DNA from: Giardia intestinalis
Lineage: Eukaryota
Length of the DNA stretch: 64,000 nucleotides
Direction: 5' to 3' (one strand)
Assembly (NCBI GenBank): GCA_000002435.2
Contig: CM018789.1
A model generated the notes under the pieces. The model saw only the letters and a program-made list of their open reading frames with translations. It was not told the origin of the DNA and made no database searches. The position numbers and the translations under genes are program-made. Shown here one piece after another: positions 24,014-25,375 of this stretch. Positions within the stretch are counted from its first letter, which is position 1. Each line of letters opens with the position of its first letter.

Positions 24014-25375
24014 CTACTGTGCCCCCGTACTCTTTAAGGGCCACGAGAAGCCCTGGCTCTTCACGTTTGCAATGACCCTCTCTGTCGAAAAGCTGGTCGG
24101 CTTGCCGCCAAAGATCCAGTTTTTATAGGCAAGCATCATGGTCAACACGAAATTGTCACACCACCGCGAAATGTTGAAGAGATTCGATCTATTCTTTAGG
24201 ATCCGCTTCCGTACGCTAAAATAGTAGCCGCTGTCTACTGCCAAGCGGCTGCACAATAGTACGGCCTCCCCTTGGGACGCGCAAATTAGGTCTTTGCATT
24301 CTAGGACGCTCAGAAACGAAAGGGTCTTCCGGCTAAGAATGTACTCCCCTACAAACCCAACTACAGGAACACCCGACCACAGCGCGTCGAGCACGATGGT
24401 GCTTCCGTTGCACTTCAAGGTGTCCACGAACACATCAACGGCCAGGTAGCGCCGTATGTGCTCCACCTTCATTGGAAGCATGCTTAGAAAGATGACCCTA
24501 TCCAAGATGTCCGGCGCCTTGTGTCTAAAGAACGCCTCGATGTGCAGCTGAGACGCAGGGGGAAACTTGAGGAGCGCATAGTACGCATTAGGCACACTGC
24601 GCAGCAGAGAGGCGATGATCCCCAGCGTTCCCATGTCGAACTTGTACACTTGATTGAACGTGCAGAACAAAAAGCAGTTAGCCGGTATCCCATAGAGCGC
24701 GCGGATGTTCTTGCGATATAGAGGCAGCTCCAGACACACGCGGTGACTGGTGAGATCAGAATTATTTTCACTCTTCTCCATGCTAGCTGGAACTGCCGCT
24801 TCCGAAGCGATTCTTTGCAGCGGATAAATGGCCTTCAACAGCGGCTCCATCTTCTTGATCATGGATCTATCTCTGCCGCCAACCAACCGTCCGTTTCAGA
24901 TCGGCTGGACCTGGAAAAACACATTGTCACCGGTGATGAGGATTCTATCGTTCATCAAAAGCTCGTCCCTCCCCTCGCTAGCCGAGTTTGTCGACACCCC
25001 ATTCTTAGTCTCCCCCTTCATCTTCGCTATTTCTGCCAGCTCCAGCTCCAGCTCTAATATCTTTGAGCTGTGGGCTCCCTCGTCCTTGTCGCCGCCTCCA
25101 ATCGGTGCTTCCGAATGTGTGCGACTCCCTATTCCACTATCCACAGACGACGACGTTGCATCGCTTCCGTCCAGGCTCAGAATATTCTCTCCAGCAGCGC
25201 TGTGATGGTTCACATCTATATCGGGCTTGCTGTCCTGAATGAGACTTCTGACCTCCTCCACAGTGACCTTGAGAATATCCGCGTGCTCCTCCAGGAGAAT
25301 CGCATTGCTATAATGCATACTATGGCTGGGGCAAATGAAGCATCCCGGCATTGTGATGACGTGCTCGGAATACAA
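24014..25375 (-). pseudogene. O-GlcNAc transferase (GT41) C-terminal catalytic fragment interrupted by an in-frame TGA
   Basis: The track ORFs 24014-24886 and 24896-25375 are in the same frame with a single TGA between them (...VQPI * NGR LVGGR...). The fragment aligns to human OGT from about YSEKLAYMPHTFFIGDH (here YSEHVITMPGCFICPSH) through Int-D to C-Cat: [34 protein letters not shown] versus [34 protein letters not shown]. There is no room upstream for the TPR or N-Cat regions because the next gene ends at 25497. Both sub-ORFs begin at TTG, not ATG. Confidence 0.6.

Follow-up and report, generated by a model that had tools for sequence, protein, structure and literature searches.

The 64-kb stretch of Giardia DNA analyzed here (the window) lies on the 1,485,438-bp chromosome of Giardia intestinalis WB C6 (ATCC 50803) and carries, behind a helicase gene, a piece of the gene for O-linked GlcNAc transferase (OGT), an enzyme reportedly characterized in Giardia by Banerjee, Robbins and Samuelson in 2009 (cited in PMC6109639). 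The parent of this piece is an intact OGT gene on a different WB chromosome of 2,761,001 bp, encoding a protein of 1480 amino acids (P0131; KAE8303406.1, XP_001707304.1, A8BFN4, GL50803_0012081), and GL50803_0012081 has been given as the OGT gene of Giardia (PMC12548405). In genomic contigs of DH and P15, and also in WB, the intact gene is a single contiguous ORF of 1480 codons. The window, on the other hand, holds only residues 1025-1480 and the TAG stop codon, comprising the intervening region and the C-Cat lobe. At 453 of the 456 codons the fragment matches the intact gene, the only differences being R1187*, A1283S and T1403S. A1283S is specific to the truncated copy of WB, and T1403S occurs in the truncated copies of WB and DH and not in full-length OGT. 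The coordinates of these features are collected in Table 1.

The R1187* change is an in-frame TGA that divides the fragment into two ORFs, ORF-A and ORF-B, the latter starting three codons past the TGA in the same frame. The match of ORF-B to the Pfam family PF13844 (Glyco_transf_41) had an E-value of 1.7e-35 and a score of 122.8 bits (cut-off 25 bits) and spanned model positions 358-542 of 543; to the C-Cat lobe of human OGT it aligned with E of about 5e-32. No Pfam match of its own was obtained for ORF-A, whose origin is shown by its identity to Giardia OGT residues 1033-1186. The similarity to the Int-D and C-Cat parts of OGT that an earlier note had claimed from the sequence alone was thus borne out. 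Its placement of the start of homology at about human residue 688 was roughly right, the YSE motif aligning close to where N-Cat ends, at about human 680-700 (chain index).

The earlier note had also stated that the TPR array and the N-Cat lobe are missing and that the helicase gene lies just upstream, which agrees with the present results. OGT homology begins at residue 1025, leaving out the TPR array, and N-Cat corresponds to parent residues before 1025, so that a complete GT-B catalytic domain is absent. When a full-length OGT contig (L001) was compared by blastn with the 64-kb window, only 25385..24067 matched, and no TPR or N-Cat sequence was found anywhere in it. In human OGT the C-Cat lobe houses much of the site that binds UDP-GlcNAc (the lysine of FNQxYK, EH.RR and CNG..T..D). 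Alignment to the human enzyme revealed that these motifs are kept in the fragment: FNQxYK (FNQVYKFD/FNQLYKID), EH.RR (EHIRR/EHVRR) and CNG..T..D. The further statement that N-Cat carries most of the catalytic residues was therefore overstated.

The OGT fragment is one part of a segmentally duplicated block of 3.27 kb, which was delimited by blastn against full-length OGT loci. It contains 1372 nt from the 3' end of OGT, the 21-nt gap that separates OGT from the neighboring gene, that gene in its entirety and about 205 nt of its upstream sequence. The full-length OGT locus of P15 (L012) aligned to the window over 25385..22120, and that of DH (L003) over 25385..22488, stopping at the end of the L003 contig. 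For the left edge, at about 22120, the alignment and the end of the Logan contig L004 concur. The neighboring gene, GL50803_00111871, is a duplicate of GL50803_00114392 (KAE8303407), the convergent neighbor of the intact OGT gene; the two proteins are 96% identical, with 20 amino acid differences, and the 21-nt gap and the convergent gene have the same arrangement at the parent and window loci. The right edge of the block is the junction 25386/25385, four residues ahead of the YSE(K/H)..MP motif that closes N-Cat. The helicase ORF ends 111 nt before the start of OGT homology (25385) and 121 nt before ORF-A. Duplications have been reported to make up 6.9% of the WB genome, chiefly as short single-gene stretches (PMC7000408).

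Table 1. Features of the truncated OGT locus and its surroundings (window coordinates)
Feature	Position	Strand	Remarks
Right-hand copy of the 2.48-kb GC-rich repeat	19577..22058	.	Ends 62 nt short of the block's left edge
Segmentally duplicated block, 3.27 kb	22120..25385		Delimited by blastn against full-length OGT loci
GL50803_00111871 (KAE8301345)	22325..23992	+	Hypothetical protein, 555 aa
OGT-derived fragment	24014..25385	-	Giardia OGT residues 1025-1480 and TAG stop; intervening region and C-Cat
ORF-B	24014..24886	-	290 codons from TTG; 282 aa from ATG at 24862; GT41 C-Cat lobe
T1403S	24249	-	Truncated copies of WB and DH
A1283S	24610	-	Truncated copy of WB
In-frame TGA	24896..24898	-	CGA(Arg1187)>TGA; C>T at 24898
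ORF-A	24899..25375 (TGA to 24896)	-	159 codons, OGT residues 1028-1186, TTG start
55-codon ORF	25216..25383	-	Opened by out-of-frame ATG at 25383, before the first in-frame ATG
Spacer	25386..25496	-	111 nt, AT-rich, helicase stop to duplication junction; no OGT homology
Helicase (KAE8301346.1)	25497..29792	-	SF1 (DNA2/NAM7-like), 1431 aa, upstream neighbor

Several other features of the window were recorded. Ten of its ORFs, looked up by exact sequence, correspond to WB proteins, Argonaute, chorein, nitroreductase Fd-NR2 and dipeptidyl peptidase being among them. A GC-rich repeat (about 60% GC) of 2.48 kb occurs as direct copies at 10833-13315 and 19577-22058, which are 99.76% identical, and as a partial inverted copy at 57582-59047 (95%); no annotated protein, Pfam match or Rfam match was found for it. 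In contig L013 a relative of this repeat with about 80% identity is located upstream of the truncated locus. A perfect inverted repeat of 96 nt (15845-15940 and 16861-16956, with 920 nt between the arms) is located in a stretch poor in long ORFs. Between 30357 and 44603 the genes for GL50803_00111869 (1459 aa) and chorein (3274 aa) share a reading frame, separated by one TAG and 13 codons, and read-through would give 4756 codons in total; since they are annotated as separate proteins, the shared frame is probably due to chance. Probably also due to chance is the string GTAAGTATACTAAC at 25465-25481 on the plus strand, located in the spacer and antisense to the two genes; it looks like a 5' splice site with a branch point after it. 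Neither the whole window nor 19400-25600 gave any hit in Rfam and tRNA scans.

Outside the window, on the same WB chromosome, the 216-aa protein P0010 (GL50803_0014637) is a copy of the middle part of the helicase, with more than 90% identity. The possibility that it marks a third copy of the block was rejected, as it duplicates the middle of the helicase and not its 3' end; it is another partial-gene duplication involving the neighborhood of the window. In two ENA metagenome contigs (L013, 1-943; L014, 1-202) homology to the window ends at 25947, so that only about 450 nt of the helicase end is present. Upstream of the equivalent of 25947 both have a different sequence, the relative of the 2.48-kb repeat included, and in some isolates the truncated locus may lie in another context or be present as a further copy.

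Both ORFs open with TTG, as the earlier note had pointed out, but this is an artefact of a bacterial ORF rule and means nothing in a eukaryote. In frame, ATG codons first occur at 25351 for ORF-A and 24862 for ORF-B, and the copy inherited neither a start codon nor a promoter. With the TGA, no inherited ATG and an out-of-frame ATG coming first, an uninterrupted frame with a start codon is absent from the WB fragment. The 2007 annotation contained a 155-aa "O-linked GlcNAc transferase" (XP_001707938.1) that corresponds to the C-terminal 155 residues of ORF-B. The WB proteins now annotated include none between the consecutive accessions KAE8301345 and KAE8301346. The 2020 re-annotation lowered the gene count from 5,901 to 4,963 (PMC7000408). 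The locus was effectively already known, since it had been entered as an OGT fragment in 2007 and removed in 2020; what the present analysis adds is the exact 3.27-kb block with its parent locus, the confinement of the stop codon to WB-type sequences, and a non-neutral, conversion-like mode of evolution.

The origin of the TGA was determined by comparing position 24898 among copies. Codon 1187 is Arg in the full-length OGT of WB, DH and P15. A T at this position was present in the window and in nine contigs (L001, L004-L011) from nine separate SRA runs, and L006 carries the helicase, the junction and the TGA within one contig. A C was present in the truncated loci of L002, L013, L014, L015 and L016 and in the full-length gene of DH (L003). 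In contigs L002, L013, L014 and L015 and in the DH genome contig L016, the alignment continues across the same junction into the flank on the helicase side, and the truncated locus is open over about 453-456 codons in all five of these non-WB assemblage-A sequences. Because T was found in nine independent runs, CGA in the other truncated copies and Arg in the parent, the TGA is a genuine point mutation, confined to WB-type sequences among those sampled.

The earlier note had correctly placed the TGA between the Int-D-like and C-Cat-like parts and had raised a sequencing error as its possible cause, which would mean that the WB fragment is actually open. The WB reference is a PacBio assembly polished with 100x Illumina, and homopolymer polishing was required (PMC7000408). 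The change, however, is a substitution and not a homopolymer indel, and the recurrence of the same T across separate runs speaks against an error. In addition, the contig collection lists the exact 282-aa product in 38 of its blocks, and the exact 159-aa product (P0141) was found in further Logan contigs. An assembly or sequencing error is accordingly very improbable.

No more credible is the proposal that the TGA is decoded, as selenocysteine, as tryptophan or by programmed read-through, or that a trans-spliced split gene has its 3' exon in the fragment. Trans-spliced split genes are known in Giardia, and contig L001 links the 5' part of OGT to the TGA-bearing sequence and begins with a poly-T run. 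On the other hand, the intact OGT gene is one contiguous ORF, so nothing needs splicing, and the junction has neither an AG nor a Giardia-type 3' splice motif; both trans-splicing and a distant intron were therefore rejected. Selenocysteine insertion and read-through were rejected because the ancestral codon is CGA, which encodes plain Arg in the parent and in other isolates. The long ORFs of the window contain no internal TGA; three of them end in TGA and most others in TAA or TAG. An alternative code with TGA as a sense codon was likewise rejected, a six-frame comparison in which each stop codon was removed in turn having given no systematic gain.

The full-length OGT contig L001 (1-3700, Logan SRR9222559) opens with a run of 26 T, has an extra A in an A-run near 1621-1626 that shifts its frame relative to the reference protein, and bears an N>S change. 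It is best read as a contig of the full-length gene that follows the paralogue from about window position 25124 onward, where it carries truncated-copy variants only, the TGA included. It could be a chimeric assembly or derive from a strain with a damaged full-length gene.

Substitutions among the copies were analyzed by the Nei-Gojobori method on the 456-codon region, with a neutral model that allowed for the excess of transitions seen in the data (45, against 5 transversions). Omega was 0.02-0.10 (about 0.06) when truncated copies were compared between isolates, equal to the values between full-length orthologues (0.04-0.05). The truncated copies of WB and L002, for instance, differ at 23 synonymous and 5 nonsynonymous positions. 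Under neutrality 67-78% of the changes would be expected to be nonsynonymous, and this expectation was rejected at P of about 1e-10 to 1e-7. Neutrality was also rejected for the changes private to the truncated copy of WB (2 nonsynonymous and 8 synonymous; P of about 2e-4 to 3e-3). The omega near 1 expected of a pseudogene was thus not observed and, given the low omega and the rejection of neutrality, a free-running pseudogene is excluded. Such substitutions can be reconciled with a pseudogene only on the condition that their variation comes from the parent through gene conversion. Synonymous differences between the truncated and full-length copies of WB were derived from mixed Logan contigs only.

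The relationships among the copies were then considered. Truncated and full-length copies of assemblage A are 0.3-2.4% apart and differ by 11-12% from the full-length gene of P15. The full-length gene of DH nests among the truncated copies, being 0.66% different from L013 and L014, whereas truncated copies are up to 2.2% apart from one another. Only one site (24980) separates all truncated from all full-length copies, and the variant patterns are mosaic (runs tests, p of about 0.02-0.05). The truncated and full-length copies of DH differ by 1.5% within one genome; any conversion must therefore be patchy or come from diverged donor alleles. Four synonymous differences fall within 19 nt at 24356-24374, forming GATG and ACCA haplotypes that split the truncated copies of WB, L002 and L015 from those of L013, L014 and DH together with the full-length genes. 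The cluster has the appearance of a short tract of conversion or of a multi-nucleotide event.

The helicase locus was also sought in assemblages B and E, and only two divergent Logan lineages were found, one contig stopping at the helicase. The other (L018, Logan ERR3333382, 4334-4456) carries a helicase orthologue of 69% identity, followed after about 30 nt by an OGT-derived stretch. Over the 120 nt available this stretch starts at about codon 1306, contains TAA and TAG stops and shows about 63% identity until M1326, beyond which it is clean coding sequence. The switch from decayed to clean sequence falls exactly at the ATG, and M1326 opens the 155-aa ORF of the 2007 annotation. Three sister contigs of L018 end about 40 nt past M1326, as expected where a unique flank meets sequence identical to a paralogue. 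No truncated OGT copy was found in the annotated assemblage B or E genomes. The 555-aa gene appears to be single-copy in those genomes, and the block may therefore be younger than L018 suggests.

Taken together, the locus is probably a non-functional OGT relic that has been kept near-identical to the full-length gene by repeated ectopic gene conversion from it. A 3.27-kb piece of the OGT locus, comprising the last 456 codons and the whole convergent neighbor gene, was copied to a site 111 nt downstream of the helicase gene on the other chromosome. In the WB lineage the CGA>TGA transition at Arg1187 splits the frame further. Repeated conversion from the full-length gene, which is under selection, would overwrite the fragment and leave mostly synonymous differences between isolates, and the fragment would then not be conserved for a needed protein. 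Because the TPR array and the N-Cat lobe are missing, the copy cannot be a GT-B glycosyltransferase. As in a pseudogene, there is an intact parent elsewhere in the genome, and the copy is truncated and bears a disabling mutation. The mosaicism, the nesting of the intact gene among truncated copies and the OGT fragment behind the helicase in a divergent lineage together favor gene conversion. The suggestion of the earlier note that the locus is a truncated duplicate of a functional OGT gene was confirmed by the intact copy on the 2.76-Mb chromosome. Its view that the duplicate is undergoing decay holds as far as the stop codon of WB is concerned, but not for the low omega or for the open frame of the non-WB truncated copies.

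Conversion is weakened by the 1.5% difference between the two DH copies and by the apparent single-copy state of the 555-aa gene in the annotated assemblage B and E genomes. Three further observations count against a relic: the non-neutral substitutions, the synonymous bias of the changes private to WB, and the open frame in the five non-WB copies. All three would be accounted for if the truncated ORF (about 445-453 aa, intervening domain and C-Cat) were a real assemblage-A gene under purifying selection. Its product could be a UDP-GlcNAc-binding or OGT-interacting protein, a role consistent with the intact UDP-sugar-binding motifs of C-Cat, and the exact coincidence in L018 of the decayed-to-clean switch with the ATG of the 2007 ORF also points this way. 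WB-type strains would then either have lost the ORF recently through the TGA or make only a C-Cat product of 282 or 155 aa. Nevertheless, such a gene has no inherited start codon or promoter and has an out-of-frame ATG (25383) ahead of the in-frame one. The truncated copies form no clade apart from the full-length genes, with a single fixed site and mosaic sharing, the locus is dispensable in WB, and it was dropped from the curated 2020 annotation. We therefore regard a functional gene as unlikely. Somewhat more doubtful still is the broader proposal of an OGT derivative consisting of the C-terminal lobe only (about 445-453 aa, possibly with a 155-282-aa core), which would be under purifying selection in most assemblage-A Giardia as a UDP-GlcNAc-binding regulator or partner of OGT, would owe its place beside the helicase to an old adjacency shared with a distant lineage, and would make WB a natural knockout. 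The conversion-maintained relic thus remains the preferred reading.

Being a shortened duplicate of a gene already known, and in a reference genome that has been studied well, the locus is of little import for biology at large, although a rare stand-alone C-Cat lobe retained as a protein would be at hand if the minority reading were true. It does matter for work on Giardia OGT, since short reads, qPCR primers, CRISPRi guides and peptides directed at the 3' third of the gene will cross-hit a copy that is 97-99% identical. Short-read assemblies chimerize the two copies, as the Logan contigs show. The locus is also a clean natural example for gauging interchromosomal ectopic gene conversion in Giardia.

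Compared with the intact Giardia OGT (GL50803_0012081), the fragment lacks residues 1-1024, including the TPRs and N-Cat, sits behind a helicase gene on another chromosome and is unannotated in the current WB set. It resembles human OGT (GT41; PDB 3PE3 and 7YEA, among others) in having a C-Cat lobe with the conserved motifs, the junction falling just before YSE(K/H)..MP, and differs from it in consisting only of the C-terminal lobe and a non-alignable intervening region, with neither the TPR superhelix nor N-Cat. With truncated duplicates homogenized by conversion, and with unprocessed pseudogenes, it shares defined breakpoints, a disabling mutation and mosaic sharing with the parent. Its own conversion, deduced from unphased data, is a probable one. 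Unlike such duplicates, it looks unusually well preserved, with an omega of about 0.06 and a frame that is open in most isolates.
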